Shown here piece after piece: positions 1-26,224 of a stretch of 64,000 nt of DNA. Location: assembly GCA_016933575.1 (NCBI GenBank), contig JAFGAR010000146.1, positions 1 through 64,000 of the forward strand. The letters run 5' to 3'. The DNA is from Candidatus Thorarchaeota archaeon. GTDB lineage: Archaea > Asgardarchaeota > Thorarchaeia > Thorarchaeales > Thorarchaeaceae. A program made the translations under genes and the position numbers. Positions within the stretch are counted from its first letter, which is position 1, and each line of letters starts with the position of its first letter. The notes under the pieces were generated by a model. It was not told the DNA's origin and searched no databases. It saw only the letters and a list, made by a program, of their open reading frames with translations.

Positions 1-38
1 CGGAACATCTTTTCTTCATCCGACTCTTCAAAATGCAT
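1..38 (-). CDS. 5' end of a gene running off the left window edge (MHFEESDEEKMF...)
   Basis: Minus-strand ATG at 38 preceded by GAGGT SD-like motif; frame open to the edge; a decayed copy of the same 5' end lies at ~6806-6890. Confidence 0.4.
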   Translation of the reverse strand, partial: MHFEESDEEKMF

Positions 39-90
39 AGTAACTACCTCTTGCTAGCTTGAGTCTTGCCTGCGAGCGAGAGGGGAGCGG

Positions 91-122
91 GTCTTGCTTA
101 TAGTTCCTTCGTATGAGGCTCT
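91..122 (+). repeat. Intergenic direct repeat copy 1 (GTCTTGCTTATAGTTCCTTCGTATGAGGCTCT)
   Basis: 77-122 matches 4107-4152 with 3 mismatches in 46 nt; 13-70 resembles 6836-6890. Confidence 0.9.
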
Positions 123-253
123 ATCTGTTAATGACATGAACATAAATCTTAAGCAATGTATCACAAGCAGGAAATATCTCGTGGCATCCATCTGATTTTT
201 TATTCCCTCGTGAGAAAGAGATATCAGGTTGTTCTTATAGGATGGGCTAAACA

Positions 254-706
254 ATGAGAACGAAAAACGAGCAGAATAAAAATGATACAGGAAAAGTACG
301 TGGCACAACATTGAGAGTTTATCATCATTTAATTCGCTCTTCAGAGTCAAAAACAGCAAGAGCGATTCAACGGGACTTGGGTCTCTCAAGTCCAAGTTTG
401 GCTCTTTATCATTTGAATCGGCTTATTGAATATAATCTTGTTGAAACTGATTCAGCTGGGCAATATTTTGCATCGAAAGTTGTTCGGATTGGCATTCTTC
501 GTTCCTATTTGAAGATTGGTAACCTGCTTGTTCCAAGACAGATTTTCTATGGCATATTCTTCCTCTCGACACTGATTTTCTCCTTACTTTTTTTTGATAT
601 CATCTTACGACCTGTTGATATCACATTTCTCATCGTACTTATCGTTGGAACAATTACATCCTTTCTTGAAGCTTATTGGCTTTTAAATCGTGAAATAGAG
701 GTGTAG
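254..706 (+). CDS. Winged-HTH transcriptional regulator with two C-terminal TM helices
   Basis: ARAIQRDLGLSSPSLALYHLNRL HTH motif followed by two hydrophobic segments. Confidence 0.8.
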   Translation: MRTKNEQNKNDTGKVRGTTLRVYHHLIRSSESKTARAIQRDLGLSSPSLALYHLNRLIEYNLVETDSAGQYFASKVVRIGILRSYLKIGNLLVPRQIFYGIFFLSTLIFSLLFFDIILRPVDITFLIVLIVGTITSFLEAYWLLNREIEV

Positions 707-803
707 ACGTACTGATCTATGTTTTGAGCTCTTAATTTTCTGGAAGCTCTAAACATACAATTATACCTATATTTGATGTATAATGACATAGTGATTTGAT
801 TAT

Positions 804-1973
804 ATGAAGCACACAGATGGATTACATATTTCATATTTCTATGCGATCATCGCAGGCTTATTCGTATCTCTCCTTGTCATTGCTTCAGTAAATACAGTCA
901 TTTCTCTTTCAACACCATCATCTAATTCAGATTTGGTTCTTCCAGGAAGTTCTATTGAATCAACTGTGTTTTCCAATATAACAAGTGATAATTTAGATCA
1001 ATGTGTTTTCAATGGAACATGGAAACATGTTTCAAATGAGCCATATTTGATGAACCTGACCCTCCCAGAAAATAAAGTAAATGTAAGTCAAGCACATCAG
1101 GTTTGCGAGAACTTCCTTGGCTCTGATCTTTATGCACTCCTATCATTCGATAGTTATCTCACACCAGTAGATAATCAGACACATCTCTGGGGACTTGCAT
1201 TTTCATATTCTGCGAATACAAGTGCATTTGCTGCTAACATTTGGATTAATGCGATATCTGGAAAAGTATGTGCATATGCGGAGCATGCATCAAGCACCCA
1301 GTGGTTCAAAGAACACAACCTCATCGATCCATCTCTGAATCCAACAGATACAGATCCGAATTATGTTGATTCTATTGCACTGGAATTTTTGCAAGTGCAT
1401 AATTATACGATTCTTCCAGAGGCTCGTCATATTAGAACACATACAGTTGAATCTAGCACTGAGAGCATTTTGTATGAGGTTGAAATCGCTATACCTAATC
1501 AAGGCATATTCTCTAGTCGATTACTTTCAGGAGTCATACTGATTGTCGATTCTTCTATTTCAAGAGTCATATCCCTATCGTACACATATATTCGTCTACC
1601 TATGATTGATTTATCTAGCGTCAAGCTATGCTCCTCTGAAGATGCTCGAGCCTTTGCCTCAAGATTTGTAAGTCCTAGTAAGATTCAGTGGGAAGGCACA
1701 TACCTCAGAATGATTCCTAAAACTCCACTATTCGTCGATGAAATGCAATTCCAACTAGCATTTGGATTTGAATTTATTCATGCTAATAATGAAATAGACG
1801 AAATACAGGTCGATGCAATAACAGGACAGTATTCTGATTTGTACACTGGTATTGTACTGCATCGATATGATACATCCTTTGGTGTTTTAATGTTCTCATT
1901 ATCTTGTGTTGGGTTTTCAGTAACTATCTGTTTTGCTTCTCGTTTTCTCATACAGCGAAATAGAAGACCTTGA
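804..1973 (+). CDS. Membrane-anchored extracellular protein with PepSY-like motifs
   Basis: N- and C-terminal TM segments; INAISGKV and VDAITGQ resemble PepSY IDAxTG motifs. Confidence 0.55.
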   Translation: MKHTDGLHISYFYAIIAGLFVSLLVIASVNTVISLSTPSSNSDLVLPGSSIESTVFSNITSDNLDQCVFNGTWKHVSNEPYLMNLTLPENKVNVSQAHQVCENFLGSDLYALLSFDSYLTPVDNQTHLWGLAFSYSANTSAFAANIWINAISGKVCAYAEHASSTQWFKEHNLIDPSLNPTDTDPNYVDSIALEFLQVHNYTILPEARHIRTHTVESSTESILYEVEIAIPNQGIFSSRLLSGVILIVDSSISRVISLSYTYIRLPMIDLSSVKLCSSEDARAFASRFVSPSKIQWEGTYLRMIPKTPLFVDEMQFQLAFGFEFIHANNEIDEIQVDAITGQYSDLYTGIVLHRYDTSFGVLMFSLSCVGFSVTICFASRFLIQRNRRP

Positions 1974-2174
1974 ATGTTGTTCGAGCTATTCTCTAGATAC
2001 GGTGTCGTCTACGAAACTTCGTGAATACTTGAATCAGCTGAATTCTAAAATTGTTGGTGGTAGTGGTTGGTTTTTCGAAACAATTGACCTTGACCAATTG
2101 GGAAGCTATTTTTTTGCATATTATTTATATTCAAGTACAATATAATACATTACGCTTGTTGATAACAAGAAGGG

Positions 2175-3848
2175 GTGAAGTTTCTTTTGGGAAAGAGAAC
2201 AATTGCTATGATCTTTGTAATTCAAGTGGTTTTTTTGATTGCGCAAGTATATCCAGTAGCTGCACAGTCGTCGAACAATGAAGCCATTCTACAGAGCAAA
2301 CCTGACATGCAAGAAAGAGTTGAATTCGCATCGAATAAAGCACAGGCTCAAGTTATGGATTTCATGAGCCGGGATTGGACTATAATTGACTGTTCATCTC
2401 CTCATGCCAACGATTTATCGATAAACAACCAACCTGCTAAAATCTCAGACTCTCAACCAATATCAAAGGAAACGAACATTAGCGACGTCAATGAACCCAT
2501 AGTTCAGTTTGAAAAATATCCATCAATAGATATTAATCAGCCTGAACTATCAGCATCTGGTGCATCATCATCAAACATAATGAGTTCTGAGGATATTCTC
2601 GCGAGCAATCCATCTTATTATCCCTACACTGAAACCTATAGTTTTCCAGCTCCGATTATGTCTCCCACAAAAGATGGTAATTGGTTTCCAAAACAGAGCT
2701 ACTCAGTACTTGCTTTTGAGTATAATAATCCCCTTTTGTGTTGTGTGAACTTCTGGATAGACATTCAACGAGACCAAGACGTATACTCACGTTACCTAAC
2801 TATTTACCAAGATGGAGGACTAATCCTTCAAGTTGTAATAGGATCAGGAGGTTATCATGGTGCTGTTGACTTAGGTTGGTCATTACAAGGCAATCACAAA
2901 ATTGAAGTTCAGATTAATTATTGCGGCTGGAAAGATCATCAATGGAAACTTACTTATGCGCAGCCATTCATTGCTCATTGGACTGGAGAAAAAGAGCCAA
3001 TCTATGATTTCTGGGAATATTTCCCGTCAGGATATTATCCAACACTTGAATGGCAGGTGCAAGCTGGATTTGATTCCTATATTCATTTAGAAACCAATGT
3101 TATATCAGGCTCAGCGCACTACATCTACATCTACATTAATGGAGTATATCGTGCATTAGTGCGGTCTGGGGGGGCTTCTGCATTAATACTTCAGTCGTAT
3201 CCTGATGACTCAGTAGTAACTGTGAAACTCAAGCTCTCTACAAGTGCTGAAGAGTATTATGGAACTAAAATCAAGTATTTCACCATCAGTCATAACGTAG
3301 TAACTCTGGAGATTGATTGGATGGGCTTAAGCGATGGAACTCCACTCGTTCCATTTGCGGATCTATTTACAATGACTGAGTATGTGCGGTCCTACTATAT
3401 ACTCCATGGATATGCTCGCCTTGACTGCATAGTAGACAATTGGATATTGAAGGACGCTCACACAACACCTGATGATTACAAATACTATCGATCAATAAAC
3501 TATGCACATGCTGGGAACAGCAAATTTGAGTGGGTTCTTATTGCAGAATATGGTGGTGGATATTATTCCGAAACTTACGGTTGGCATTGGAAAGATGCAA
3601 CAGCGGATTGGGGAATTGCCATCTTTGCTTCACAGTGTGGAACCCTCAATTATATGCGGATGGTCTTGCTTCATGAATTTGGCCATCATGCTGGTATAAT
3701 AGAATACGATAATGTTGGTGAGGAGAAATATTGCAGTAATTTTGGTTGTTGTATGTCTTATGCCACTGGTTCAAATGCAGTAGCTGCTCCTTGGTATTGT
3801 ATAAAGCACTGGTCTCTGAGGGAGTATCCATTTACTCCTCAAGGATAA
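2175..3848 (+). CDS. Secreted zinc metalloprotease (C-terminal metzincin/archaemetzincin-like domain)
   Basis: Signal peptide ending VAA-Q; HEFGHHAG at nt 3672; C..CCMS Met-turn-like segment and CxxH. Confidence 0.7.
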   Translation: MKFLLGKRTIAMIFVIQVVFLIAQVYPVAAQSSNNEAILQSKPDMQERVEFASNKAQAQVMDFMSRDWTIIDCSSPHANDLSINNQPAKISDSQPISKETNISDVNEPIVQFEKYPSIDINQPELSASGASSSNIMSSEDILASNPSYYPYTETYSFPAPIMSPTKDGNWFPKQSYSVLAFEYNNPLLCCVNFWIDIQRDQDVYSRYLTIYQDGGLILQVVIGSGGYHGAVDLGWSLQGNHKIEVQINYCGWKDHQWKLTYAQPFIAHWTGEKEPIYDFWEYFPSGYYPTLEWQVQAGFDSYIHLETNVISGSAHYIYIYINGVYRALVRSGGASALILQSYPDDSVVTVKLKLSTSAEEYYGTKIKYFTISHNVVTLEIDWMGLSDGTPLVPFADLFTMTEYVRSYYILHGYARLDCIVDNWILKDAHTTPDDYKYYRSINYAHAGNSKFEWVLIAEYGGGYYSETYGWHWKDATADWGIAIFASQCGTLNYMRMVLLHEFGHHAGIIEYDNVGEEKYCSNFGCCMSYATGSNAVAAPWYCIKHWSLREYPFTPQG

Positions 3849-4120
3849 TTCAGGAAGTAACTCTTACAATTAATCAAAATTCCCTAGGAGCGCATCAATT
3901 ATCTTATGATGCAGATCCACCAGTTTTACTCTTAGACGTTTGAGGATTTTCATGATAAAGATATTGTTGCAGAATGGAGAAATCTATATTGAATTCTAAA
4001 AAAAGTATAGAAAAAATTCTACCTGATAATCATCCAAAGGCAGACAAAAATGCATGATGCAACATGGAGTTCAGTTTTTTTTATTATGTGAAACCTTGCT
4101 TGCCACCGAGAGGGGGGCGG

Positions 4121-4152
4121 GTCTTGCTTATACTTCCTTCGAATGAGGCTCT
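4121..4152 (+). repeat. Intergenic direct repeat copy 2
   Basis: GTCTTGCTTATACTTCCTTCGAATGAGGCTCT. Confidence 0.9.
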
Positions 4153-4318
4153 GCCTGCCATTGCATCTATTGCTAGTAGCAAATTACTGTTCTCTCTGAA
4201 CAATCAATATGCTGCCTGAACAAGTCATACAGCACGAGCCCAAGTAGACCAACAAGAACCGGTGCAACTGGAGAAAACTGCGAATTTATCAGGAATTTGT
4301 GAAGCGCAATCTTAATAT

Positions 4319-4350
4319 GTAAATTCTACTTTACGTATAATATACTTTAC
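4319..4350. promoter_or_regulatory. Tandem palindromic operator (GTAAA-N6-TTTAC x2) upstream of XRE regulator
   Basis: GTAAATTCTACTTTAC then GTATAATATACTTTAC, directly before the HTH gene. Confidence 0.6.
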
Positions 4351-4352
4351 AT

Positions 4353-4604
4353 TTGGTGTGGCGAGTGGTAATTACAAACAAACTCAAGGAATATCGTGAA
4401 CAGAAGATGCGCCTTGCGTCAAATTCCTCGGATTGGACTCAAGAAACCATCGCACTTCGTGTTGGAGTGACACGACAGACAATAATCTCGATAGAGAAAG
4501 GAACATACAACCCCTCTCTGGAACTAGCATTCCGTCTCGCTAGTTTGCTCAATGTAAGAATCGACGATCTCTTTCAATTTGAAGGTGATGAAATTGAATA
4601 CTAA
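4353..4604 (+). CDS. XRE/Cro-family HTH transcriptional regulator
   Basis: TQETIALRVGVTRQTIISIEKGTYNPSLELAFRLA. Confidence 0.92.
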   Translation: MVWRVVITNKLKEYREQKMRLASNSSDWTQETIALRVGVTRQTIISIEKGTYNPSLELAFRLASLLNVRIDDLFQFEGDEIEY

Positions 4605-4959
4605 GCATGCTGTCTATATTCTGATGTTTCTGTATGTCGCAATCGTCCTTGTGACTGTCATTATATTATTTCCTGACAGTTATCTCTCGGGAATAATTTC
4701 TGGAATCTTCTCTGCTGTCCTCGTGGGATTACTTGCTCGGAAATCGAATTTCGATTCACACAAAGATGAAAGAACAATACTGATTGCGAACAAGTCTGCT
4801 GGAATCGCATTAATATTCTTCATCTTTGGTGTGCCGCTTTTTGGAGTTCTGACCATGGCAGAGATTCCCGTTTTAGACACAGGATTTTCTCTATGGTTGC
4901 TGTATTTCATGGTGCTCAGTGTGTGGTGGCTTTCAGCAGGTTACTACTATAAGAAGTAG
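4579..4959 (+). CDS. DUF2178-like 4-TM membrane protein
   Basis: DERT motif between TM pairs; usual partner of XRE regulators. Confidence 0.7.
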   Translation: MKVMKLNTKHAVYILMFLYVAIVLVTVIILFPDSYLSGIISGIFSAVLVGLLARKSNFDSHKDERTILIANKSAGIALIFFIFGVPLFGVLTMAEIPVLDTGFSLWLLYFMVLSVWWLSAGYYYKK

Positions 4960-5042
4960 ATACAATCAAAGAAGTAGATGGCCAGAATCAATACTTGACC
5001 ATTTTGTTTAGATTCACCTTTGGGAATAGACTTAATGACATT

Positions 5043-5070
5043 GCCCTGCTTATAGTTCCTTCAACTGAGG
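5043..5070 (+). repeat. Intergenic direct repeat copy 3
   Basis: GCCCTGCTTATAGTTCCTTCAACTGAGG. Confidence 0.85.
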
Positions 5071-5163
5071 ATTTTCTAACCAAAGTATCTCATCGCAAAA
5101 CAACAACCGACTTGGAAGGACATGCTCCAAAGAGCGTAACTGAATCCAATACTAGATGAATAA

Positions 5164-5985
5164 CTATTCGACCATTTTAACCAGAAAAGCGACTTCCTTT
5201 GGAAAGTTGGCTTTCAGTCTATTCTTCTTCAGATTCTCTCTGACAATCCACTTTATGTCGGTATCGTTACTCTGAGCAAGTTCTTCAAGAAATCGAAATC
5301 CCGCTGAAGGGATTGCTCGCACTACCACACTAATCGAATAGCCTAGCGCCTTACGCAGAGTTCTGAACTCTTCTGACTTTCGATCTTCTGAGGATGCAGT
5401 TCTCTTGATGACTCTTCTATTTGCCTTAAGTGCCCACTCTGCAGAACTGCTATCCTTCAATAGACTTGGTTCTGCAATACCTGCTACGACCCCTCGCAAC
5501 ACCAACCATCCATCGCTCTTGATCCATTCCTCCAATTCTCTCCAGACCTTGACATCGCCGCCAGAGAGTAGCTTCTGAAGAGCAAATGCGACACCTTCAC
5601 GCATCCGCCAGCGAGAGTCTTTTGCCAAAGTTCGTAGATCAAGGAGTGCCTTCTTTTGATATTCCGGAAGCGTTGCTCCGACTGCCCCTAGTCCTCTAAC
5701 ACCACAGAATGCTATGAACTCTCTTGGATCATTGACTGGCGCTTCTTCAGCCGATATTCTTGCCATCGTTGAGCAGAGTTCCCAGATTTCCTTGGGCGGG
5801 TCTATAGCAGCTCTGCTGGAAATCATCTCTTCGAAAGCAGCTGCAAGCTCCAAGTTACCTCTTGGTCCTGGTAGATTGCTATTTGCGGTGAGATATTTGA
5901 AGAGGTATTCACTGATATTACTATTCGGAAAATGACTGAAGATTTCTGACAATTCGACAACGTGTTTCTGTTCTTTGCTCAACAT
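5164..5985 (-). CDS. HEAT-repeat protein (DNA-alkylation-repair AlkC/AlkD-like fold)
   Basis: NSNLPGPRGNLELA, DSRWRMREGVA, WIVRENLKKNRL helical-repeat motifs. Confidence 0.65.
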   Translation of the reverse strand: MLSKEQKHVVELSEIFSHFPNSNISEYLFKYLTANSNLPGPRGNLELAAAFEEMISSRAAIDPPKEIWELCSTMARISAEEAPVNDPREFIAFCGVRGLGAVGATLPEYQKKALLDLRTLAKDSRWRMREGVAFALQKLLSGGDVKVWRELEEWIKSDGWLVLRGVVAGIAEPSLLKDSSSAEWALKANRRVIKRTASSEDRKSEEFRTLRKALGYSISVVVRAIPSAGFRFLEELAQSNDTDIKWIVRENLKKNRLKANFPKEVAFLVKMVE

Positions 5986-6102
5986 CGCTCACTCCTTGGA
6001 CACCCATCCAACTTGATATACGTCTTTCGTGATTTTGCCTGTAGCCCTCTCAACTATTTAGCTTCTAGAATCAGGAGTTCTCAACAATGTAAGTCTGGAA
6101 AA

Positions 6103-6134
6103 GCCGTGTCTATAGTTCCTTCATATGAGGCTCT
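6103..6134 (+). repeat. Intergenic direct repeat copy 4
   Basis: GCCGTGTCTATAGTTCCTTCATATGAGGCTCT. Confidence 0.85.
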
Positions 6135-6310
6135 ACCTGTCACCAAACACATGACTATTTACAGGTTAGGCTCTTGATGTCACCATCATGGTCCATGAAC
6201 TCTGCGAGAGAGAGCTACTTCGTAATTTCATTTAGATTGACGTCCAACCTAGTGGTGGAAACAGAAGACTGCATCATAGGTTTTCGAGGTGGTAAAGGCT
6301 GCTGTCTGTC

Positions 6311-6721
6311 TTAGTTCGATTGGTCCAGTTTTAACCATTGAACCACTTCCTCTATCAATACTGCTAGTACAATCAATAGTGCAAAAGGGGGGATTACGAA
6401 TAGGAATGGAACCTCAGGATCCATACCGGGCGGATGTATACCGACAAGAGTAAGTAGCACTACAACTAGAATCACGATGGCACCTATGGAAATTGCTGAA
6501 TTGACTCTGCCAAATTTGTAGGCATTCACTTCATCCATTCGACGTTTCCGCCCCCACCATCCTAAGAGAGTGATACCCGCCAGACCACCTATAGAAATCA
6601 CTAGAAATAATTGAGTATTGAGTTCAAGAGGAATTGCAACAAGTCCTAGATGATTAGCAATGAGAATAATTAGAATGGCACATACTAAGATGAGAAAGTC
6701 TATCCTACTCCGTTCGCCCAT
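6311..6721 (-). CDS. Hypothetical 4-TM membrane protein
   Basis: ATG-initiated 136-aa ORF with four hydrophobic segments. Confidence 0.7.
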   Translation of the reverse strand: MGERSRIDFLILVCAILIILIANHLGLVAIPLELNTQLFLVISIGGLAGITLLGWWGRKRRMDEVNAYKFGRVNSAISIGAIVILVVVLLTLVGIHPPGMDPEVPFLFVIPPFALLIVLAVLIEEVVQWLKLDQSN

Positions 6722-6835
6722 ACAAATGTCCCATTGACCATTGTGTCATAACAGTTATTCAATTTGTTGTTCAATGGATTTTAATTGTTATTAACACCCA
6801 CCAGCTAGACTCTCATTTGCCCTTGGAGCTTTCTC

Positions 6836-6936
6836 TCTTCATTCGACTCTTCAAGATGCAAGTAAACTACCTCTTCACTTGAGTCTTGCCGTGGTCTAGA
6901 TTCAAGTGTCCTGATTCATAGTTCCTTCGTATGAGG
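6836..6936 (+). repeat. Intergenic direct repeat copy 5 with extended left flank
   Basis: Core GTCCTGATTCATAGTTCCTTCGTATGAGG at 6908-6936; 6836-6890 resembles 13-70. Confidence 0.88.
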
Positions 6937-7033
6937 TCTTTTGTGGTTTGAAGAAGTGGACAAACAATGAATCTTAATTCTAAAGCCATACTAATGTATA
7001 TCAGCAAGTTCTTTCAATAACATCTGACTCATA

Positions 7034-7654
7034 ATGCAAAACATAAGCTCTGAACTCTATCATGTGACAAAACGTGACATCAAGAAGGTAATTGAAACCT
7101 TGGCACGGGCATTTTCTGAGGATCACCTGATGTGTTATTTCGCTCCTGACCCTGAGAGAAGGTTGAGATTTCTTCCAAGATACTTCAACTATCGTATCAG
7201 AAACACTCTCATTGATGGAAATATCTATGCCACCTCTGAAGACATAGAGGGCGTTGTCTTCCTTACACAAACAGAGTACAAGAGTACCTACAGTTTGCCA
7301 AGGGCAATGCGAACAGGAGGGTTGGGCCTATATCGAGTCGCCGGGTCTGAGAATGTCAGAAAAATGCGAGAAGTAGAGAGATTTGTGTCTGACAAGAGAG
7401 ATGAGTGTATCTCTGAACAATATTTGTACCTGGGATCATTGGCAGTTCATCCAGACTATCAAGGAAAAGGTCTGGCTAGCAAACTCATTCGACCTATTCT
7501 GGAGGCTTGCCATTCTCATAACAGGCTCTGCGTCCTCGATGCTGAAGATGAAAGCCTTGTGCAAATGTACGAACATTTTGGGTTTGAAGTAGTTGATTCA
7601 TACATATTGCCTGATGCCAACATCCAACATTGGATCATGGCAAAACGTCCCTAA
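7034..7654 (+). CDS. GNAT N-acetyltransferase
   Basis: YLGSLAVHPDYQGKGLAS motif A; MYEHFGF. Confidence 0.92.
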   Translation: MQNISSELYHVTKRDIKKVIETLARAFSEDHLMCYFAPDPERRLRFLPRYFNYRIRNTLIDGNIYATSEDIEGVVFLTQTEYKSTYSLPRAMRTGGLGLYRVAGSENVRKMREVERFVSDKRDECISEQYLYLGSLAVHPDYQGKGLASKLIRPILEACHSHNRLCVLDAEDESLVQMYEHFGFEVVDSYILPDANIQHWIMAKRP

Positions 7655-7868
7655 CTAATGAAACACCATCTCCCTGTATCTCTTAAGAAAGAAGAGCAGT
7701 TACCGCAGTTGAGGGGCTCACAGCCGTAGTCTTAGCTGACCTTGTCCTGAGAGGAAGATGAGTCAGAAAAAGGATGATTCAAACATTATAGATTACTATA
7801 ATAGGTATCATTCTCTCATAAGCCAACAGCCATCAGATGTGGTGCGGTCAAAGAGAGTGAAGATAAGA

Positions 7869-10412
7869 ATGGATACTAGCAGGAAGATATTGAGCATCTT
7901 GCTCATGTGTGTACTTCTATTGAGTTTTGGAGCTTCAACAGAGATCCGAGACATCGGTTTCTTAGAATCTCCGACTAGCAAACCAAACAACCGTAGTACG
8001 CTATCAGAGGGTCTGGACCTCTATACCAACGAACCCTTGACGGGTTATGTTGAAGCCTGGTCTGATAATGCGACAAGTTCTGGAGTGGCATTCACTGGCA
8101 ATGTGATTGGAGAACCAGATAGTTTCAAAATGGAGATGGTGTTTCTAGAAGCATATGAATACGCCCTCCTGAAGATAAATGGCTCTATCATGAGTGATTC
8201 AATGACTCTCCATGGATGCGTGGATGAAGCAGGCTCCGATACAATCTTACAAGTCTACACTTGGATTGATGCTTATACAGAACCTGACCTCACAGGAGTC
8301 CCTGACGCCATTCCTAATGAAAACTGGGCAATTCTCTATACTTCTTTCTTGAGTAATGGAGACGTCTTTATGTTTTATGAGAATACTTCTATTGAGTATA
8401 TCCTTCTAGTAGGCCTAAGTTTTCCTGCTGGAATAGGGAGTTACCACGACTTTGATGCCATTGAGGTCCATGGTTATACAAATATCATGGCTGATGAACA
8501 GAATGATGGCATTCCGGATATCTGGCAGTACCCTGATGTTGTTATGAACAATGTATCTGTCGATGTTGACCTATTTGGTTATACTTGGGGGATTTCAGGC
8601 TTTATAGGAATTGCACCTGAAGGAAGCACAAATCTCGATTTTCTGACGCCTTTTATCAAGCTAGGTGTAATTGAACCTGAAGATGTCGATGAGACCCACT
8701 TCTATGTCATCTGTCAATGTGAACTTGCACTACCATGGGCCGGCAATGATATACACGCCCTAGATGTTCCATACTTGAACTTCTTGGGTTCATATGACCT
8801 GCTTAACATGACCTTCCTTTCTGAAAACATGACAGTATGGAACGAGCTTGTAAACGGATTTGATCGGTACATAGCTAACGATGGCAGGATTCGGACATAT
8901 CATTTCGCAGACTACACAGTGGATGGGTCTTTTGATCCTCACAACTACTATGGTGCAACTGGTCAGATTAATGCGGAATATAATATGCTAGATGTGAAGA
9001 CAAGCAGTCCTCAGAGCGTGAAAGAGGAGTTCGACCTTGATATCAGTATCGTTCTTGATATCATGGAGAATGTAATGGATGCAGTTCAGGGCGGATCGGA
9101 CTTGGTCAAGCAGTTCATGAGTAAGATCATAGGTTTCATTCAAGGGAAGATGCTTGATGGTATCGGAAAGGAGCTTCTCGAGAAGATAACAAAGAAGGCT
9201 CTCAAGACTGCTCTCAAGGCAATCCTGTCAATCACTACCATCAAAGACATCATAGTCAAGGGCTCAAAGATCTTAGAGAAATTTGGAGTCGAGCTTCCTG
9301 ATTGGCTCAGAAAGGCTCGTGACTTTGTTGACAGTATTCCATTCATTGATCCACCGGTGGAGATCTGGAAGGTACGTTTGACCTTTGTCAATGAGTCTAC
9401 TGACCTGCCTATTCTAGGGTACGATTACATAAACAATGTATCCATCTACTCCCATCCTCAGGGACTCTACTTTGGTGATACCTATAGTGCACAAGTGATT
9501 CTCTCCTCACGGGACATCTTTCCAGTGGTAGAAAGAATCCAATCAGTAAATGGGTCAAGGACCTTGACTGGGTATCTCTATGTTGAGGACATCGGAACAC
9601 TTGAGGCGACCATGGCTAAATCATCCCTCGAACCAGGTGAGGTAGCAAGAGGAAGAGTATATGGTGTACCTCCAAATGGTACCCTTGTCATCAGTCAGTG
9701 TCACATCTCAGTTGCATCAAGTCTTCCCTCTACCATTGAACTTGGGGTCCACCTCAATGTGTCACTAGCAGTGCATGATGAGAACGGCACATCACTGAAC
9801 AATGTATCAATAGCGCGTGCAGCAATCAACAACATGCCCGGATCCATGGTCCAGTTACCACTTGTGGCTGAAGCAGATGGCACACTTACACTGATGGTAG
9901 AAACGGAAAATCTCGGGGTATCTCTTGGCGACCACATGATTGCTGCTATCTACAAACCCACGGCAATGTTCCATGACTACTGGAACTTCACCTTTGTACT
10001 GGAAGACACTGTTGTTCCTGCATTTGATAATGTCACAGCTCAAGTCAGTGCGGATGGTACTACCATCACCTTCAGTGCAATCGTCACAGACTACGATCTG
10101 AACGCCAGTAGTGTTGTACTGAAGACCATTGATGGTTCCACTGACCTTGCTCTTGCTACATCTCATCTGATGACAAGCAATGGTACACACTATATTGTAG
10201 CTCTTACCTCCTCAAACTTTACTGCATTAACAGTCTACTACAGAGTAGAGGCATCTGATAATTCAGGAAATGCAGGACAGTCCACCTTGGAGTCAATTGC
10301 TCGAGGAACTCCATCCGAGCTTGGCCCGCTTGGAATCTTTCTCGCAGTTGGTATAGGTGCTGTAGTTACTGTTGGTCTCGTCGTCTACTTTGTCAAGCAC
10401 CCCAAGAGCTAA
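7869..10412 (+). CDS. Large cell-surface protein (signal peptide, internal amphipathic helical block, Ig-like domains, C-terminal TM anchor)
   Basis: Probable start ATG 7869 (MDTSRKILSILL...); EDTVVPAF...YRVEASDNSGN Ig-like unit; TM plus KHPKS tail. Confidence 0.8.
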   Translation: MDTSRKILSILLMCVLLLSFGASTEIRDIGFLESPTSKPNNRSTLSEGLDLYTNEPLTGYVEAWSDNATSSGVAFTGNVIGEPDSFKMEMVFLEAYEYALLKINGSIMSDSMTLHGCVDEAGSDTILQVYTWIDAYTEPDLTGVPDAIPNENWAILYTSFLSNGDVFMFYENTSIEYILLVGLSFPAGIGSYHDFDAIEVHGYTNIMADEQNDGIPDIWQYPDVVMNNVSVDVDLFGYTWGISGFIGIAPEGSTNLDFLTPFIKLGVIEPEDVDETHFYVICQCELALPWAGNDIHALDVPYLNFLGSYDLLNMTFLSENMTVWNELVNGFDRYIANDGRIRTYHFADYTVDGSFDPHNYYGATGQINAEYNMLDVKTSSPQSVKEEFDLDISIVLDIMENVMDAVQGGSDLVKQFMSKIIGFIQGKMLDGIGKELLEKITKKALKTALKAILSITTIKDIIVKGSKILEKFGVELPDWLRKARDFVDSIPFIDPPVEIWKVRLTFVNESTDLPILGYDYINNVSIYSHPQGLYFGDTYSAQVILSSRDIFPVVERIQSVNGSRTLTGYLYVEDIGTLEATMAKSSLEPGEVARGRVYGVPPNGTLVISQCHISVASSLPSTIELGVHLNVSLAVHDENGTSLNNVSIARAAINNMPGSMVQLPLVAEADGTLTLMVETENLGVSLGDHMIAAIYKPTAMFHDYWNFTFVLEDTVVPAFDNVTAQVSADGTTITFSAIVTDYDLNASSVVLKTIDGSTDLALATSHLMTSNGTHYIVALTSSNFTALTVYYRVEASDNSGNAGQSTLESIARGTPSELGPLGIFLAVGIGAVVTVGLVVYFVKHPKS

Positions 10413-10417
10413 GATTC

Positions 10418-11581
10418 TCAGACATATGGCAGGATGACTAGATACACTCCTGCCTTCTGTCTTTTTATCAGATTAGAGATTGTGACTGCTGCGATTATCA
10501 GAGTTACACCTATGACAGCGCCGCTTCCAAGCACGAGTAACATGAATCCCGAATCCGATGAATTCCGTACTACAAACGCTAGGACATCAGTAAAGTTACA
10601 ACTATTGCCAAAGATATCTTGAGTGAAAATATCTACCGTGTAGTTTCCCTCTCCAAACGGTTCCAAGCATGCCTCATATTGTGCTTGCGATACATTCTCC
10701 AACATCACCGTGCGATATGGCTCTGTGGAGTTTCTATCTCCTGTGCCCAAATCAATTGCGTAGAATCTGGCAACAACCTGATCCACCCCTGATTCCTCTA
10801 GAATGTCTACAATGAGACTAGAATTGTCATTAGTGGTCAGCTCAATAGGATCTAGCTGTACTGAGGTCACATCAGGCGCGTTCTCCTCAAAGACTCCAAT
10901 TGCCCTTGCGATTGCCTCGCACATATCGGGACGATAGAATCGACTTCGGACAGTAGTGACGATATTGCCGTCAATAACTGGAGGTACATCGCCCGGGATA
11001 TAATTTGCTCCTGCTGCGATATACTCAGATGCAAAACTTGCATGTCCGGAGACATTCTTCCCGTTGATGACACCCGCTGCCGCTAGGACTCTGACAGCCT
11101 TGCACCATGCACTGACAACTATTCCCATATCCGCTGCAGATTTGATGAGATCCAGAGCAGCTTGCGAGTTGAGAAGTCCTTCATGGCTCTCTCCTGGCAT
11201 GATTGAGATAGCATCATAGTCTGAGAGGCTCGAGACCTCAGAGATGAGCATATCCATGTCTAATGTTGCCGAACTGGATTGGTAGTCACATGGCTCTATG
11301 GTCATCTCAGTCCCAGTAAGGGTCACTTCCCATCCCCATCCCTCAAGGATTGGGCGGATGAAGTGATAGTTCGCTCCATAATCATTGTCCATGATGAACA
11401 GGATCTTTACATCATTCGTAGACTTGGTCTCTGTTATGGTGACCTTTGATAGGTCCATTATCACGCTCCCATCTCTCATCTCGTAAGATATGGGTCCTGT
11501 TGTCATCAAGACAAGGGTAAGAATAGTAAGAATTATGACACTCCTACGTTTGTTACTCAACATCATGCAATCAGGAAACAA
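10418..11581 (-). CDS. Surface-anchored DJ-1/PfpI-family protein
   Basis: YDAISIMPG, VSAWCKA nucleophile elbow, VIDGNIVT; N-terminal signal and C-terminal TM. Confidence 0.8.
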   Translation of the reverse strand: MFPDCMMLSNKRRSVIILTILTLVLMTTGPISYEMRDGSVIMDLSKVTITETKSTNDVKILFIMDNDYGANYHFIRPILEGWGWEVTLTGTEMTIEPCDYQSSSATLDMDMLISEVSSLSDYDAISIMPGESHEGLLNSQAALDLIKSAADMGIVVSAWCKAVRVLAAAGVINGKNVSGHASFASEYIAAGANYIPGDVPPVIDGNIVTTVRSRFYRPDMCEAIARAIGVFEENAPDVTSVQLDPIELTTNDNSSLIVDILEESGVDQVVARFYAIDLGTGDRNSTEPYRTVMLENVSQAQYEACLEPFGEGNYTVDIFTQDIFGNSCNFTDVLAFVVRNSSDSGFMLLVLGSGAVIGVTLIIAAVTISNLIKRQKAGVYLVILPYV

Positions 11582-11944
11582 ATTGGTTCACCCTTTTCTT
11601 CGTGGAATGTTGAAAATTCAACTAATAATAGGATGATAGTTCGAAGCAACTTTTTCTGAATGAGGTTTTAGGAAACAAGATATACCTCGTATGCTCTTTT
11701 AGAATGAAGTGATGTTCCTATCCACTGTGGGAAGCGTGTCCGTTTGTTAAGTTCTGTAAATATTCAACAATCGTGATTCTCTCTGTGAGTCGCTCTTCTT
11801 CATTCTACGCCCATAGAACGAGCCCTAACAGCCTCTAGTCTCGAAATAATGCTCTGATATAAAAGTAACATATTATATGATAATTTTTTACTAATTAACC
11901 ACAGGGACAATACTGCGGAGGAATAGTATCCGAGGACAAAAAAA

Positions 11945-12568
11945 ATGGCAAATACTTCGAACTCCCCTCTCATGGAAGAGAATGTGACCTTTGCTCCAGC
12001 AGCTGGTAAATCCCGCCTGACCAAGGCTCTTGTAGCAGGTTCTGGAGCTGTAGGAAAGACCACTCTTGTGCGAGTACTGAAAGAAGGTAAATCGATCAAC
12101 GAGTCTAACTCTACTCAGGAGTATCATAGAACCCCCTTTCTCGAGCTTGAAACCATCAAAGTTGAGAGAGTTGGTGGGACCGGGTCCAGTGGCATCTATC
12201 TCTTGGTAGATGTGGCAGGACAACTAGACCAGCCAATTCATGCTATCCGAGACCTCAGTAAGATTGCGCTGGGGAGTGTTGAGTTGGTATTCTTGATATT
12301 CTCTGCTGAGAACCTCCAATCTCTGTTAGACCTTAGGGACTGGGTCTCTTTGATCAAGACCCAATACAAAGAGGTCCCTGGGAAGGAACTGAAGTTCGTG
12401 CTTATCATGAACAAGTGCGACCTGGGGAGTTGTTTTGATTCTGAGCTAGTATCGAGATTCATCCAGTCTGAACCTATGATCTCGGGATATTTTGAGGTCA
12501 GTTGTAAGAGCGGTGACGGAATCTCGGAACTGCAAACTTGGCTAGTAAAAAATGTGACATCAGAATAA
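11945..12568 (+). CDS. Ras/Rab-like small GTPase
   Basis: G1 GSGAVGKT, G2 T, G3 DVAGQ, G4 NKCD, G5 SCK. Confidence 0.9.
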   Translation: MANTSNSPLMEENVTFAPAAGKSRLTKALVAGSGAVGKTTLVRVLKEGKSINESNSTQEYHRTPFLELETIKVERVGGTGSSGIYLLVDVAGQLDQPIHAIRDLSKIALGSVELVFLIFSAENLQSLLDLRDWVSLIKTQYKEVPGKELKFVLIMNKCDLGSCFDSELVSRFIQSEPMISGYFEVSCKSGDGISELQTWLVKNVTSE

Positions 12569-12587
12569 ACAAGGAGCTTTCGACCAG

Positions 12588-13508
12588 ATGACATTGGCAA
12601 GTAACATTACTGAATTCAAATGTAGAGTGTGCGGCAAGCAGATACAATTTGACCCTAAAGATCCATCCTCGTACCTATCAAAGTCAGAGCATGAGGATTT
12701 CTTTGGGATGAAACTCACAACATTTCGCATTGCTCACGATTCAAAAGATGAACGTCACTACAATACTGTGATTGTTGATCAAGCTGGATTCTTCAGGGGT
12801 CATAGAGATGCATACACTGAACCTATTAACGAACTTAAACCATCTTTTGATAGAGAATACTGGGTATTCCATGAAGAAGGTCCAACCATCGAGAAGACGC
12901 ACAATGTTGCTCTTGCGGTTCTCATCAGTAGGAGTGACCGTTGGGTGATCGATATTGTATGTCCGAGGAATCTGAATGCATCTCATATAGCAACTCTCGT
13001 AGTAGATCGAGTTGAGGAGGCATGGCGTGTATATGATTCCATCCCCCGGCCACTGGACATGAGAGTTGCTGACATGGAGATGAAGGTATGGTCTTCTGAA
13101 TCTCGAGTATTGTGTGTTTGTTTTACAAACGGTTCATTGATGAAATCGATAGATTCTGTTGCTGAGCATATCGTGAATGAGCGCGATGGTTCAATCATCC
13201 CACGAAGAAGGAATCTGAATGTCATATTTCGGATTCTCGAGAGTGATTCTAATCTAGACCCATCGATACTCTCACGAATTATCAACGAGGATATGCTATT
13301 CGCCACACTTCACACACCTTATGAAGATAGGATTCCCAGCATTGTGGAAAGAACTGCATCAAGATATCCTATTGCTGGGGAGCTATTGGGTCCACTATTG
13401 CGTGGTTACATTACATTGATCGAAGCTCTTGAGGGCGATTTCAGTTCAAGATACAAGGAAGTCTTTGAGTTGATTGATTTTGTTAACCGGAGACGAATAT
13501 TGGGATAG
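12588..13508 (+). CDS. Hypothetical protein with N-terminal CxxC/His metal-binding module and C-terminal wHTH-like helices
   Basis: CRVC...H...H; operonic spacing with GTPase (19 nt) and MTase (8 nt). Confidence 0.7.
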   Translation: MTLASNITEFKCRVCGKQIQFDPKDPSSYLSKSEHEDFFGMKLTTFRIAHDSKDERHYNTVIVDQAGFFRGHRDAYTEPINELKPSFDREYWVFHEEGPTIEKTHNVALAVLISRSDRWVIDIVCPRNLNASHIATLVVDRVEEAWRVYDSIPRPLDMRVADMEMKVWSSESRVLCVCFTNGSLMKSIDSVAEHIVNERDGSIIPRRRNLNVIFRILESDSNLDPSILSRIINEDMLFATLHTPYEDRIPSIVERTASRYPIAGELLGPLLRGYITLIEALEGDFSSRYKEVFELIDFVNRRRILG

Positions 13509-13516
13509 ATTTTGGA

Positions 13517-14569
13517 GTGAGTAAAATGCTACCGACAATAGGTGCTTGGACAGAACTTTTGAAAATTGGTGGCACTGGCCGTACCAGGAAGAAGGAGTTA
13601 CGAGCATATTATCGTGCACTCTCCTTCAATGTTTTGAGAAAAGAGGGTTTGTTTGATTTTCTAGTAACACCACAGTCAGTTCAGAGTATTGCTAATCGTT
13701 TTGGATATACAGATATTCAATTTCTCACCAAATACTTGGATGCTTACACAGAAGATGAAATACTAATTAGAGAAAACGGAACTTATCGAACTAACGGCAT
13801 TATCAAAGAATTCGCTGTTATCGCTCCTGATATTTTCAATCCAGGACTCCAACAGATAGCTTCTGATGGAGCCGCAGCTATTCCTGATCGACTAAGAGGG
13901 CAATATTCAACCTTCTCAGATGAGATGAACACTTTCAACTGGGATGATGCTCTTCAATTAAAGATGTACGATCATATACGGAATGCTGCTTTTGGATATT
14001 CAGGGGCCTTGAAGAGACGGGGTAAATTCATTGATGTTGGATGTGGTAATGGGGTTGGAACAGCGGCAATCTGGGGCAAATTCTACAAGAGAGGTGCTTT
14101 CGAATCAGGTAATCCTATGAAAATGTATGCATTGGAATACGACCCAAATCTAAAGCAAATAGCAGAGGAGGAGTTTCCGTTATCTGTTTCCCGTTTGTTT
14201 AATATTGATCGTACTATCATTGATAATCTATCCCCACACTACCCTACTTTCGTTCAAGGTTCTGCTGAGGAGCTGCCTTTCGAGGACGAATTCTTTGATA
14301 TGGTATATACATCTCAAGTTCTGCACTGGTGTGACGCTGAGAGAGCAACCAAGGAAATGATGCGAATTCTAAAACCTGGCGGGCTTTTCTTTGGTACTGA
14401 AGCTTTTTACCCAATGCTCGATATCTATGTTGAGCTCAATGTTCTGCTCAACGAAGGGGCTCATGGGGCAATTATGAAGGAGGAATTTATTCGATGGGTC
14501 AAAGAGGCTGGAGCTTCTGAGGTGAAAACTGCAACTCCAGCAGGTCTGTTTAAAGTTCTAAAATCCTGA
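13517..14569 (+). CDS. Class I SAM-dependent methyltransferase with N-terminal wHTH-like domain (paralog 1)
   Basis: FIDVGCGNG, GSAEELPFEDEFFDMV, LHW, LKPGG. Confidence 0.9.
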   Translation: MSKMLPTIGAWTELLKIGGTGRTRKKELRAYYRALSFNVLRKEGLFDFLVTPQSVQSIANRFGYTDIQFLTKYLDAYTEDEILIRENGTYRTNGIIKEFAVIAPDIFNPGLQQIASDGAAAIPDRLRGQYSTFSDEMNTFNWDDALQLKMYDHIRNAAFGYSGALKRRGKFIDVGCGNGVGTAAIWGKFYKRGAFESGNPMKMYALEYDPNLKQIAEEEFPLSVSRLFNIDRTIIDNLSPHYPTFVQGSAEELPFEDEFFDMVYTSQVLHWCDAERATKEMMRILKPGGLFFGTEAFYPMLDIYVELNVLLNEGAHGAIMKEEFIRWVKEAGASEVKTATPAGLFKVLKS

Positions 14570-14665
14570 TTTGACTAAAGGAGATATCAACATGGGTCAA
14601 AGAATAGCTACCTGTGAACAACTTTTCAAAATGGATGATATAGAAATAGGGCGTGTGATGAAATA

Positions 14666-15706
14666 ATGTTGTCAACAATTGGTGCATGGGCGGAAATTAT
14701 CTGGTTACTTACTTCAAAGGACAGAGTAAAGATGGTACATGAATACCATCAAGCACTCTCTGTCAATGCAATGAGAAGAGAGGGTTGGTTTGACTACATG
14801 AGGATGCCACAGACTGTCGAGGACCTCATGGATCATTTTGGATACACTGACTTTCCATATCTCATGAAATTTCTAGATGCATTTGTTCATGATGGAATTT
14901 TGATTAGAGAAAATGGAACCTACCGTACTAATGGTCCTATTGCTGAATATCCAATCAACCCTCCTGATATATTCAATGCGGGAATATTGCAGGTACATGC
15001 CGATGCATTAAATGCAGTTCCTAATAGACTGAAAGGAGTCTATACCACCTTCTCAGATGAGATGAACACGTTCAATTGGGATGATACGCTCCAGTTAAAG
15101 ATGTATGATAAAATCAGAAAAGCCGCATTCAGATTTACAGATGCTCTCAAGAGAAGTGGTACATTTCTTGATGTTGGCTGTGGCAATGGGGTTGGAACAG
15201 CAGCAATCTGGGGGTACTACTACAAGAAAGGTGTATTCACTTCAAACAATCCCGTAAAGATTTACGGATTGGAATATGACCCAAATCTTATGCAGATTGC
15301 AGATGCAGAATTTGCCATTTCAGCATCTCGTTTACTCGGTGTGGATCGTAGTGTTATCGATGCTCTTAAGGAACATCACCCCGTCTTTGTTCAGGGAAAC
15401 GCTGAGGAGTTACCTTTCGAGGACGAGTTCTTTGATATGGTATACACATCTCAAGTTCTGCACTGGTGTGATGCAAAGAAAGCAACCCAAGATATTCTGA
15501 GAGTTCTCAAACCTGGTGGTCTCTTCTTTGGTACTGAAGCATTTTATCCAATACTTGATCCCCACATTGAGCTATTCATCCTACTCAATGAGGGTGCTTA
15601 TGGTGCTATCAAGAAGGAAGACTTCTTCCAATGGGCTAAAGAGGCTGGAGCTTCCACAGCAAAATCAGCAACGCCTGCTGGTGTCTTCAAAGTTGTGAAG
15701 AATTAA
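14666..15706 (+). CDS. Class I SAM-dependent methyltransferase (paralog 2)
   Basis: FLDVGCGNG, GNAEELPF, LKPGG; colinear with paralog 1. Confidence 0.9.
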   Translation: MLSTIGAWAEIIWLLTSKDRVKMVHEYHQALSVNAMRREGWFDYMRMPQTVEDLMDHFGYTDFPYLMKFLDAFVHDGILIRENGTYRTNGPIAEYPINPPDIFNAGILQVHADALNAVPNRLKGVYTTFSDEMNTFNWDDTLQLKMYDKIRKAAFRFTDALKRSGTFLDVGCGNGVGTAAIWGYYYKKGVFTSNNPVKIYGLEYDPNLMQIADAEFAISASRLLGVDRSVIDALKEHHPVFVQGNAEELPFEDEFFDMVYTSQVLHWCDAKKATQDILRVLKPGGLFFGTEAFYPILDPHIELFILLNEGAYGAIKKEDFFQWAKEAGASTAKSATPAGVFKVVKN

Positions 15707-15830
15707 TCAATGGAGATTGGGGGCTACTAATACGAAAGGAAGACTTCGTGAATTGACCAGCAGAACACAGGACTACAAGAGTCGAATTTACCGCTCCTTT
15801 GGCTTCAATAAGGTTTACAAGAATTCATGT
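15704..15830 (+). pseudogene. Decayed C-terminal fragment of a third methyltransferase copy
   Basis: Translates LINGDWGLLIRKEDFVN*PAE...TAP versus LLNEGAYGAIKKEDFFQWAKE...ATP; TGA in place of Trp. Confidence 0.5.
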
Positions 15831-15929
15831 ATTGTGTTGATGTGAAATCGATGGTAAGTATTGGAGTATGATACCCACACTATGACAACACTGGTACTAC
15901 AAGAGCTTGATTCAGGAGTGTAGATGTAG

Positions 15930-17081
15930 ATGCTACAGGTGCCAATCTATTGGAATCCATTCACTATGCTAAACACAGTCTACGCGCTTGCAAACGTCAT
16001 ACCCCTGCTGATAATCGCGTTCATAGTCTATCATCGAGATCCGACTTCCAAGATTAACAGACTGTTCTCCTTGGGTTCTGCATTGTTCGCTCTTGCTTAT
16101 GCGCTATTCCCCATCGGTGGTCTGTTCTGGAATGTTTCGATTCTCAGTGTTCAAGTCATCCTTATCTCGACCAGACTCGTCTTCTTTATCGGATTCATCA
16201 GTCAGGTTGTTCTGTGCTGGGTAGCACTAGCTCTCTATGAAGGCGAAGCGATGTGGAGCCGGAGGAGAACAGTCTTTTTTGCTGGTAGCTTGATTCTCAT
16301 CAATCTTGTTGGGGTTCTTACCCCTGACGCTATCTATATCATCAACGGCCCACCAGAGATTGATACTGGAGAGGGGCTTATCTACAGTCTCTTGGGATAT
16401 CCTCTGATTGCTCTTCTCATCACTGTTTCACTTGTGACCTTCTCGAAAACATATTTCGAATTTCATAAAGAAGACCGAATAATTGGGCGTCAGGCGATGG
16501 TGCTGACTATTGGCACCTCTCTTGAATTCACTGCTATGCTCACAGGACTTCTCTCATTGTTACTCCTCATGCATTCTCTCACCTTTCTCGTCTTTGCTGT
16601 CGCCTCCACGGCAACAGTTGTGAAGTCGTTTGGATTTACGCAAGAGGCAAGTCTTGTGAAACTTAAGGTGACCAGTGAACTTCGAAGGATGAAGATTGCT
16701 ATCTCCAAAGGGCAGATTGAACGAGCTGAATTGCAGTTGAAGTTTATCAAGGACCTGGTCGCCCGAGAGAAGTCCATTGTAGCGAATGCACGGATGTTGA
16801 CACTGGAAGGATTAGTGAAGACCTATCAAGCCGACATACCATCTGCTCGTCTTGCCTTCAATGACGCAAAAGAGCTTGCAGAGAATGAGCACCTAACTGG
16901 CCTCTTAAACGAGATTGATGATCATATTGAACATTTACAAGTCTATGAAACTATGTTGACAATCAGCGAATCTGTCACGATTCCCCACAATTATACAAAC
17001 GAAGCAGAAGAAATAGAACGTGCATTAGCATACCTTGATGAGATAACCAAAAGCCCAGATATCATCTTTGAGAGAACATAA
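15930..17081 (+). CDS. 7-TM membrane protein (HisKA_7TM-like) with cytoplasmic TPR-like helical tail
   Basis: About seven hydrophobic helices with P-x-S-K-I-N-R-L-F loop; helical C-terminus; no kinase motifs. Confidence 0.7.
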   Translation: MLQVPIYWNPFTMLNTVYALANVIPLLIIAFIVYHRDPTSKINRLFSLGSALFALAYALFPIGGLFWNVSILSVQVILISTRLVFFIGFISQVVLCWVALALYEGEAMWSRRRTVFFAGSLILINLVGVLTPDAIYIINGPPEIDTGEGLIYSLLGYPLIALLITVSLVTFSKTYFEFHKEDRIIGRQAMVLTIGTSLEFTAMLTGLLSLLLLMHSLTFLVFAVASTATVVKSFGFTQEASLVKLKVTSELRRMKIAISKGQIERAELQLKFIKDLVAREKSIVANARMLTLEGLVKTYQADIPSARLAFNDAKELAENEHLTGLLNEIDDHIEHLQVYETMLTISESVTIPHNYTNEAEEIERALAYLDEITKSPDIIFERT

Positions 17082-17181
17082 GTGCTCCAGAGGTACTCGA
17101 CCCACTTACGGATAATCGTATTGCACCGCACTGTGGTCCTCGTTCTGTAGGGAGTCTGTCATCACGTATTTGATTTTAGAT

Positions 17182-17514
17182 CTAGGGGATGGCTTCCGAT
17201 TGTTTTTGCGCCGCCTTCGGACCATAATATAAACCAATTAGAAATGCGATGATGAGTAGTAAAATCATATTGAAATAGATACCAAAGCCAGCTTGTTCGA
17301 AGGGGAAGATACTTGGTGTAATGTTTAGTACAACATGAAATGCTGCTCCCGTGAAGATAGATCCATTATTGTTATTGTACAGCCAGGTCATTATGATAGA
17401 GAGTGTGGTTGTGTTAGTAATGAAAAGCCAGAATGGTTTGTTTGCATAGGCCTCGATTCCTAAATCCGAAGATAAGTTACGATAGTAATTTGAGGATAGA
17501 GATTTATTAGTCAC
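17182..17514 (-). pseudogene. C-terminal half of a CPBP (Abi/CAAX) protease
   Basis: TWLYNNNNGSIFTGAAFHVVLN motif present; EExxxR motif absent. Confidence 0.6.
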
Positions 17515-17561
17515 GAATCTGTGCGCATCCAGAAATTTCCAATAATAAGGAGAGAGTCTGT

Positions 17562-26221: not shown

Positions 26222-26224
26222 GAC

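Follow-up and report, generated by a model that had tools for sequence, protein, structure and literature searches.

A probable additive gene island punctuated by copies of an acyl-CoA dehydrogenase promoter edge in a Thorarchaeota genus

The pdif modules of Acinetobacter plasmids are accessory modules bounded by short sites, which are 28 bp long, have an 11-6-11 dyad and alternate in orientation. In 'Ca. Methylopumilus' the additive island fGI-2 is punctuated by the last 20 nt of tRNA-Lys, and the accessible part of that report describes no integrase for it (PMC10872708). Tycheposons, which occupy tRNA-anchored islands in Prochlorococcus, encode tyrosine recombinases and occur as one or two elements per genome, and their excision has been shown experimentally (10.1101/2020.12.28.424599). 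A survey of Thaumarchaeota names tRNA genes, intergenic regions and 3'-distal parts of protein genes as targets of integrated elements; a promoter or 5' end is not listed in the portion available (PMC6563490). Here we analyze a 64,000-nucleotide stretch of a Candidatus Thorarchaeota genome (contig C131, positions 1–64000, hereafter the window; the assembly, G000, has 3.47 Mb in 215 contigs), in which a short repeated motif separates small units of accessory genes beside an acyl-CoA dehydrogenase gene (ACAD). We read the region, with a probability of about 0.6, as the anchor-proximal part of an additive hypervariable island that extends from ACAD to a methyltransferase-HAD-TPR block in one Thorarchaeota genus, with recombination at the repeated site.

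The array falls in a known category, that of additive flexible islands with a repeated anchor-gene end. It has a fixed locus with empty sites, repeats of the anchor end that separate the units, and unit breakpoints at these repeats. Like the fGI-2 island, it holds a variable number of small units of accessory or unknown genes between direct repeats of the anchor gene's end (PMC10872708, in its accessible part); it differs from fGI-2 in being anchored at the promoter (5') side of a protein gene instead of a tRNA 3' end, in having an Asgard archaeon as host, and in nucleotide-level documentation of cassette limits and slot changes. The tycheposon islands offer a parallel for successive one-site integrations that would push older elements outward, for partial target copies between elements and for degenerate remnants (10.1101/2020.12.28.424599), whereas no recombinase gene was found here and the array is known from sequence alone. 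Archaeal integrated elements likewise have direct-repeat att sites and re-use one site into arrays, but theirs are kilobases long and mostly come with integrases (PMC6563490, in the portion available). The locus differs from the published cases in the promoter anchor of a protein gene, in its Asgard host and in compact, integrase-less cassettes without a visible recombinase, and our literature search found no description of it. A first-pass annotation, made from the letters of the window, had proposed a non-integron gene-capture system. The array is indeed no integron, but its novelty was overstated, as additive islands with anchor-end repeats have been published (PMC10872708; 10.1101/2020.12.28.424599).

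A 20-nt core (TATAGTTCCTTCGTATGAGG) matches the plus strand of the window at 99, 4129, 5051, 6111 and 6917 with 0–3 mismatches, compared with 0 matches in 100 shuffles. The assembly contains five same-strand copies of the motif core ATAGTTCCTTCGTATGAGG, around which ~33 nt are conserved. A motif profile built from 36 copies in 12 genomes, partly anchor copies, recovered the same five from the whole assembly at 24–40 bits, with everything else below 9 bits, and a mismatch scan of all 3.47 Mb found no sixth copy. All five fall between long open reading frames. The first-pass description of five intergenic copies in the same orientation thus stands, and its statement that the window holds no further good copy extends to the whole assembly. 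The motif is confined to the ACAD locus and not scattered before conserved genes, which rules out a genome-wide promoter, transcription factor site or regulon. A tRNA fragment as the source of the repeat is also ruled out, as the window holds no tRNA gene; an Rfam-type RNA family search of window positions 1–12000 returned no match at E up to 1. In public collections, every contig that carries the extended motif bears the name Candidatus Thorarchaeota (SMTZ1-45, AB_25, OWC2 and others). The features of the window are as follows.

1–38, minus strand, 5' end of the anchor gene ACAD: first 12 codons, ATG at 38; the remainder lies off the contig.
39–98, minus strand, ACAD 5' untranslated region: Shine-Dalgarno sequence GAGGT (50–46) and C-rich leader, conserved genus-wide (16 ACAD upstream regions aligned).
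89–128, plus strand, copy 1 (anchor copy): 40 bits with the profile; on the minus strand CTATAAG at 103–97, preceded by ACGAAGGAA.
129–4118, plus strand, cassette 1: winged-helix and transmembrane protein (254–706), 389-aa protein (804–1973) and 557-aa HEFGH protein (2175–3848).
4094–4166, plus strand, copy 2 (medium): 73 nt homologous to window 64–137; the core with a right extension, preceded by part of the ACAD leader.
4167–5041, plus strand, cassette 2: XRE-type helix-turn-helix protein (4353–4604) and DUF2178 membrane protein (4579–4959).
5042–5075, plus strand, copy 3 (short): found by the profile; the HEAT-cassette homology in L131 and L132 extends leftward as far as this copy.
5076–6101, minus strand, cassette 3: HEAT-repeat protein (5164–5985).
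6102–6141, plus strand, copy 4 (short): found by the profile; 126 nt upstream of the HEAT gene on that gene's strand.
6142–6823, minus strand, cassette 4: 136-aa membrane protein (6311–6721).
6824–6944, plus strand, copy 5 (long, ~120 nt): pseudo-copy of ACAD codons 1–10 (pseudo-start), leader and core; aligns to window 2–128.
6945–7730, plus strand, cassette 5: GNAT acetyltransferase (7034–7654).
7731–25474, no strand, remainder of the variable region: no motif copies; ends at the methyltransferase at 25475 (conserved right flank).

Copy 1 lies in front of the anchor gene, whose start occupies window 1–38 on the minus strand (MHFEESDEEKMF...). The rest of ACAD is missing from the G000 assembly, in which only 30% paralogues are present. 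A recombinase had been suspected to the left of the window; instead, relatives have at this place a complete divergent gene for an acyl-CoA dehydrogenase of 412–415 aa (for example L031 8786–10030 and L034 12238–13476, both matching Acyl-CoA_dh_N, _M and _1 with E from 1e-13 to 1e-31). Window 1–127 shares 77–89% identity with the equivalent place in 18 congeners. In the alignment of ACAD upstream regions, a conserved block spans the ATG to ...TATGAGG and includes the Shine-Dalgarno sequence, the C-rich leader, CTATAAG and the core. CTATAAG is TATA-like and is found 62 nt upstream of the ATG on the ACAD strand; the core adjoins it on its upstream side. Similarity between genomes ends directly after ...GAGG, and the core is kept in all ACAD upstream regions. 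Since the conserved block ends at GAGG, copy 1 corresponds to the outer (BRE/TATA-side) edge of the predicted ACAD promoter region. This edge is conserved even in genomes without an array. For copy 1, the earlier caveat that the motif reads like a BRE-TATA promoter was justified. Two independent assemblies break within the ACAD 5' end or leader (window position 1, and contigs C34/C35 of G001), likely as a result of long internal copies that repeat this ~120-nt segment.

We called open reading frames, clustered the proteins and mapped the motif on the ACAD contigs of 20 congeners. The locus is fixed: in at least seven congeners ACAD lies on one side and a conserved block on the other, composed of a small ATP-cone protein, a methyltransferase, two unknown proteins, a HAD hydrolase, a TPR protein, an MBL-fold protein and a DUF763 protein. 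In the window this block occupies 25475–32807, and the variable region, initially drawn to end at 7654, therefore reaches 25474. Arrays with two to eight same-strand copies and differing cargo are found at this locus in at least 12 genomes of the genus. The site is empty in G015, G024 and G007, in which ACAD adjoins the flank genes without an array and the core is a variant (ATAG[A/G]TAATTCG...). We counted 36 motif-to-motif cassettes with a median length of 920 nt (range 399–4030), of which 25 hold one gene and seven hold two. Cassette genes occur in both orientations (28 plus, 22 minus), as seen before in the window, and sort into 17 shared families and 24 singletons. The cargo is accessory and includes an epimerase, GNAT proteins, ICMT/PEMT-type methyltransferases, an MGMT-like protein, CAAX proteases, a metal hydrolase, beta-helix and PKD surface proteins, helix-turn-helix regulators and several proteins without a family.

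Comparison of arrays defines the cassette limits. In 13 pairs of copies from different genomes that share the left cassette only, per-position identity is high on the left and at background 2–3 nt after GAGG; the 19 pairs that share the right cassette only show the reverse pattern, and the junctions at the motif are also visible by eye in alignments. The HEAT cassette, in slot 3 in the window, is found in slot 1 beside the ACAD anchor on metagenome contig L132 (94% identity over window 5042–6132, from copy 3 to copy 4) and in slot 2 behind a kinase-like cassette on metagenome contig L131 (83% over 5042–6126). The GNAT, epimerase, fam21, fam31 and fam10 cassettes have different neighbours from genome to genome. 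Two extra cassettes, one at the anchor and one further in, set G014 and G016 apart, the other units being collinear. Units are thus gained, lost and shuffled exactly at the motif between relatives, which is how the first-pass annotation had proposed to recognise recombination sites. Contigs from a run of another study (X2) were placed at 90% likeness and serve as supporting evidence only: they share anchor 53–121, continue with 3141 other letters in place of cassette 1, follow window 4301–6130 at ~96%, and resume at 6915 after other DNA. A joint of 119 to 6915 in X2 is weak, with 25 letters on one side.

Cassettes are more alike between genomes than core genes. Between G014 and G016 two cassettes are 94.4% and 93.8% identical, compared with 74–85% for seven flanking core genes; the corresponding values are 89–91% versus 71–80% for G003 and G013, and 91% versus 79% for G001 and G012. 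Non-coding DNA is part of the 94% stretch, which extends from one motif to the next, and selection on the protein is therefore no explanation. The same comparisons bear on the view that the region is a graveyard of integrative plasmids or viruses, each of which brought an integrase and an attP matching the ACAD promoter and was later reduced to a few cargo genes. It is well known that att sites are re-used in tandem and that older elements decay (PMC6563490, in the part accessible; 10.1101/2020.12.28.424599), and motif scores decay outward from the anchor as such a history would suggest. We nevertheless consider it improbable, because none of the 36 cassettes from 12 genomes holds an integrase fragment, 25 are single-gene units whose stop codon often lies within ~20 nt of the motif, and the same compact cassette is found intact in other slots at 83–94% identity.

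Under the reading that we prefer, the ~33-nt repeat at the outer edge of the ACAD promoter region would act as a recombination site. A DNA circle with one copy would recombine with a chromosomal copy, usually the well-kept one beside ACAD; the inserted unit would come to lie between two direct copies, and older units would be pushed outward. Recombination between two copies would delete or release a unit. The mobile units would be the motif-to-motif cassettes of one to four genes, moving among slots and species. The most likely catalyst, to which we give a little short of an even chance, would be a site-specific recombinase supplied in trans, whether encoded by a plasmid or virus that escaped binning or belonging to an unrecognised family.

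Internal copies conserve ~33 nt (GCCCTGCTTATAGTTCCTTCGTATGAGGCTCT) and not the 28 nt of a dif-like unit, as had been supposed from the window. By reading, the dif-like 11-6-11 arrangement is not found either: the sole dyad is the 6-nt pair CTTATA/TATGAG, imperfect by one G-T mismatch, around the 9-nt GTTCCTTCG. Short sites delimit accessory modules here as in Xer/dif systems; unlike pdif sites, all copies are direct, the 6-9-6 dyad is imperfect, and most of the draft genomes gave no Pfam match for an Xer-type gene. Copies come in three lengths: short ones limited to the 33 nt, to which the preceding gene's stop codon may come as close as ~20 nt; medium ones, like copy 2 of the window (73 nt); and long ones of 115–146 nt, among them G012 copy 2, which extend into the ACAD leader. 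Copy 5 of the window and an internal copy in G023 also take in ACAD codons 1–10 to about 1–21. Every copy has a sharp edge at GAGG. In G014 and G016, polymorphisms at one end of the core track the left neighbour and those at the other end the right neighbour, which places the exchange inside TTCCTTCG(TA); this is the one clean case, the other cassettes being too diverged for such mapping.

The same island could have formed without a dedicated enzyme, if host homologous recombination of the Campbell type integrated circular or linear DNA that carried the ACAD promoter segment, and unequal crossing-over shuffled and deleted units. The variable repeat length, from 33 to ~146 nt and in some copies into ACAD codons, is what homology-length duplication would give, and an exchange outside the core in G023, the lack of a detectable tyrosine or serine recombinase in most genomes, and a different repeat in a second array of the same genome (contig C139, see below) point the same way. 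On the other hand, homologous recombination is poorly served by 33 nt of imperfect homology, and the origin of a motif copy on unrelated genes is left unexplained. Variable repeat length and missing recombinases favour homology, while the sharp common edge at GAGG and the motif-exact cassette limits favour a defined site; on balance we regard an enzyme-free origin as rather unlikely.

In favour of the island reading that we prefer, motif score declines with rank from the anchor (rho -0.36, p 0.0014, 5000 within-array permutations), which together with the GC-poor first cassette (37–39% compared with 42% for the genome) fits insertion mainly at the anchor and decay of older copies, but the profile was built partly from anchor copies and is biased to high scores near the anchor. 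Several findings weigh against recombination at a dedicated site. As internal copies decay, many of them may be dead scars. The dyad symmetry of the motif is weak. Long copies with ACAD codons are not the product of a crossover inside the core, and in G023 the long internal copy matches the anchor in its ACAD part and departs from it in the core, which seems to place that exchange to the left of the core. No integrase-bearing element or other insertion agent of an additive island was found. Pfam searches detected no recombinase or transposase in any array or flank, nor in the window island up to 25.4 kb. Among the 28 genomes of the genus, which are drafts (71–99% complete, with plasmids and viruses often unbinned), tyrosine recombinases (PF00589) occur in eight and serine recombinases (PF00239) in eight; most array-bearing genomes have neither, including the array-rich G004, G012, G016, G017 and G013. 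Exact-word scans of viral, metagenome and species-genome collections found no free element with a single extended motif, and the contigs examined (contigs, not reads) contained no circle or deletion junction. Of the earlier claim that the repeats are recombination sites of a cassette-acquisition system, the part that stands is that they are real module boundaries; no recombinase and no excised circle was found in these searches.

The right flank is excluded as the home of a recombinase, as it encodes the methyltransferase, HAD, TPR, MBL-fold and DUF763 proteins only. No array contig has a PF00589 match. In G000, the single PF00589 gene is a 368-aa frame that stands alone on C189 (1415 bases), without the motif, and there is no PF00239 gene; C189 may belong to an unassembled mobile element or be a contaminant. 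That 20 of the 28 draft genomes lack a PF00589 match is unexpected for archaea, and an XerA-type chromosome resolvase seems to be missing from the genus or too diverged in it. In the scanned collections, the extended motif is present in ACAD arrays only. Viral contigs L077–L079 and metagenome contigs L083, L087, L090, L091, L097 and L098 share a bare 17–18-mer, look like chance matches and were rejected as carriers, and the bacterial matches in the genome collection are all single 18-mers. A search of viral contigs for the fam21 cassette protein found none.

The promoter-like sequence of the repeat raises the possibility of a mobile promoter or operator that was copied before genes and plays no part in recombination. 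Its minus strand carries CTATAAG, a TATA-like sequence 62 nt ahead of the ACAD start with purine-rich DNA upstream of it, and in many minus-strand cassettes the motif lies 52–84 nt upstream of the start codon. This promoter geometry fits minus-strand genes only. With 28 plus and 22 minus genes, the motif lies behind more than half of them and points into the gene; moreover, it occurs nowhere else in the genome, and module homology breaks exactly at it. We thus regard a purely regulatory role as very improbable. Within the island reading, the right-hand copy probably doubles as the promoter of minus-strand cassette genes. A ~40-nt stretch (GATTCACCTTTAAGTATAGAC...) to the left of the motif is common to unrelated minus-strand cassettes (L038 4440–4480, L035 3785–3825, window 5012–5041). 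On the gene strand it resembles a second TATA-like box and a GGTGA ribosome site, and it may be a common leader of these cassettes.

Integrons resemble the array in their stacked, mostly single-gene cassettes, which lack a recombinase of their own and are exchanged between genomes; they have been reported in ~8% of Asgard genomes (PMC9668308), and an integron or an integrase-less attC cluster (CALIN) would account for an array of small cassettes. Unlike integrons, the array has no IntI, no folded attC, no attI beside an integrase, and no common orientation or shared outside promoter. The neighbouring gene is ACAD, and gene orientation is mixed. DNA folds of both strands in 81-nt windows around all five copies were no better than those of shuffles (z from -0.67 to +1.81), providing no hairpin, and on reading the RYYYAAC/GTTRRRY boxes are absent, in agreement with the first-pass view that these are not attC sites. 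An integron or CALIN is refuted on the defining features tested (integrase, attC folding and boxes, orientation) and has next to no probability in our view.

The large accessory gene content of Asgard archaea, the closest known relatives of eukaryotes, is a frequent topic of discussion; their gene uptake is poorly known. The ACAD locus is a concrete place, reproducible across a genus, of single-gene entry, exit and passage between species, with junctions defined to the nucleotide, and no known recombinase explains its array. If an enzyme were found, it would represent either a new kind of cassette recombination or, with a promoter as target, a new target class for archaeal integrases. At 33 bp the site lends itself to direct testing, and arrays could serve as strain markers in sediment metagenomes. 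A wider reading, which we consider doubtful, is that the genus, and perhaps Asgard archaea more generally, has an integron-free mode of capture in which small integrase-less cassettes enter and leave at copies of host gene ends, at several loci with repeats of their own, through an unrecognised recombinase or homology-templated events.

Individual cassettes of the window differ in their distribution. Cassette 1 is carried by no relative examined, and an exact look-up of its 389-aa protein returned the source sample only; the earlier labels 'PepSY-like' and 'metalloprotease' have no Pfam support, although the 557-aa protein does contain a HEFGH motif. The HEAT-repeat protein of cassette 3 (~270 aa) belongs to a family of 1841 proteins at E≤1e-20 from Bathyarchaeia, Asgard archaea and Methanomicrobia. 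A homologue of the cassette 4 protein is encoded in G004 (contig C13), outside any array. Copy 5 also matches the anchors of L031 and L034. The GNAT cassette is bounded by motifs on both sides in G004 and G001 and follows a motif in G009; in the window, a degenerate motif remnant (11/19 by eye, below profile detection) is present at ~7700–7730, where the relatives have the right-hand motif of this cassette.

Further into the island, 12 kb from its start, window 11945–14569 holds a block of a Ras-family small GTPase, a 306-aa protein and an S-adenosylmethionine-dependent methyltransferase without flanking motifs. The same Ras-like block is flanked by two motif copies in G023 (L034, G023:C181), and a second methyltransferase paralogue (14666–15706) matches the same G023 gene as the block does. 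The genes at 20.8–25.4 kb are core-like biosynthetic genes.

Our genome screens for other arrays were insensitive and missed even the ACAD array, though they confirm the repeat family of a second array in the same genome, outside the window. This array (C139:750–11164) has seven to eight same-strand copies of a repeat (...TGTTGAGCCACCCTTT followed by a T-tract) 1–2.2 kb apart, and the repeat has no sequence in common with the ACAD motif. Its cargo consists mostly of toxin-antitoxin-like pairs, in which PIN-like proteins are combined with small antitoxin-like partners. A further region of the genome (C38:5938–9603) contains four direct copies of a ~100–130-nt repeat, 0.9–1.4 kb apart.

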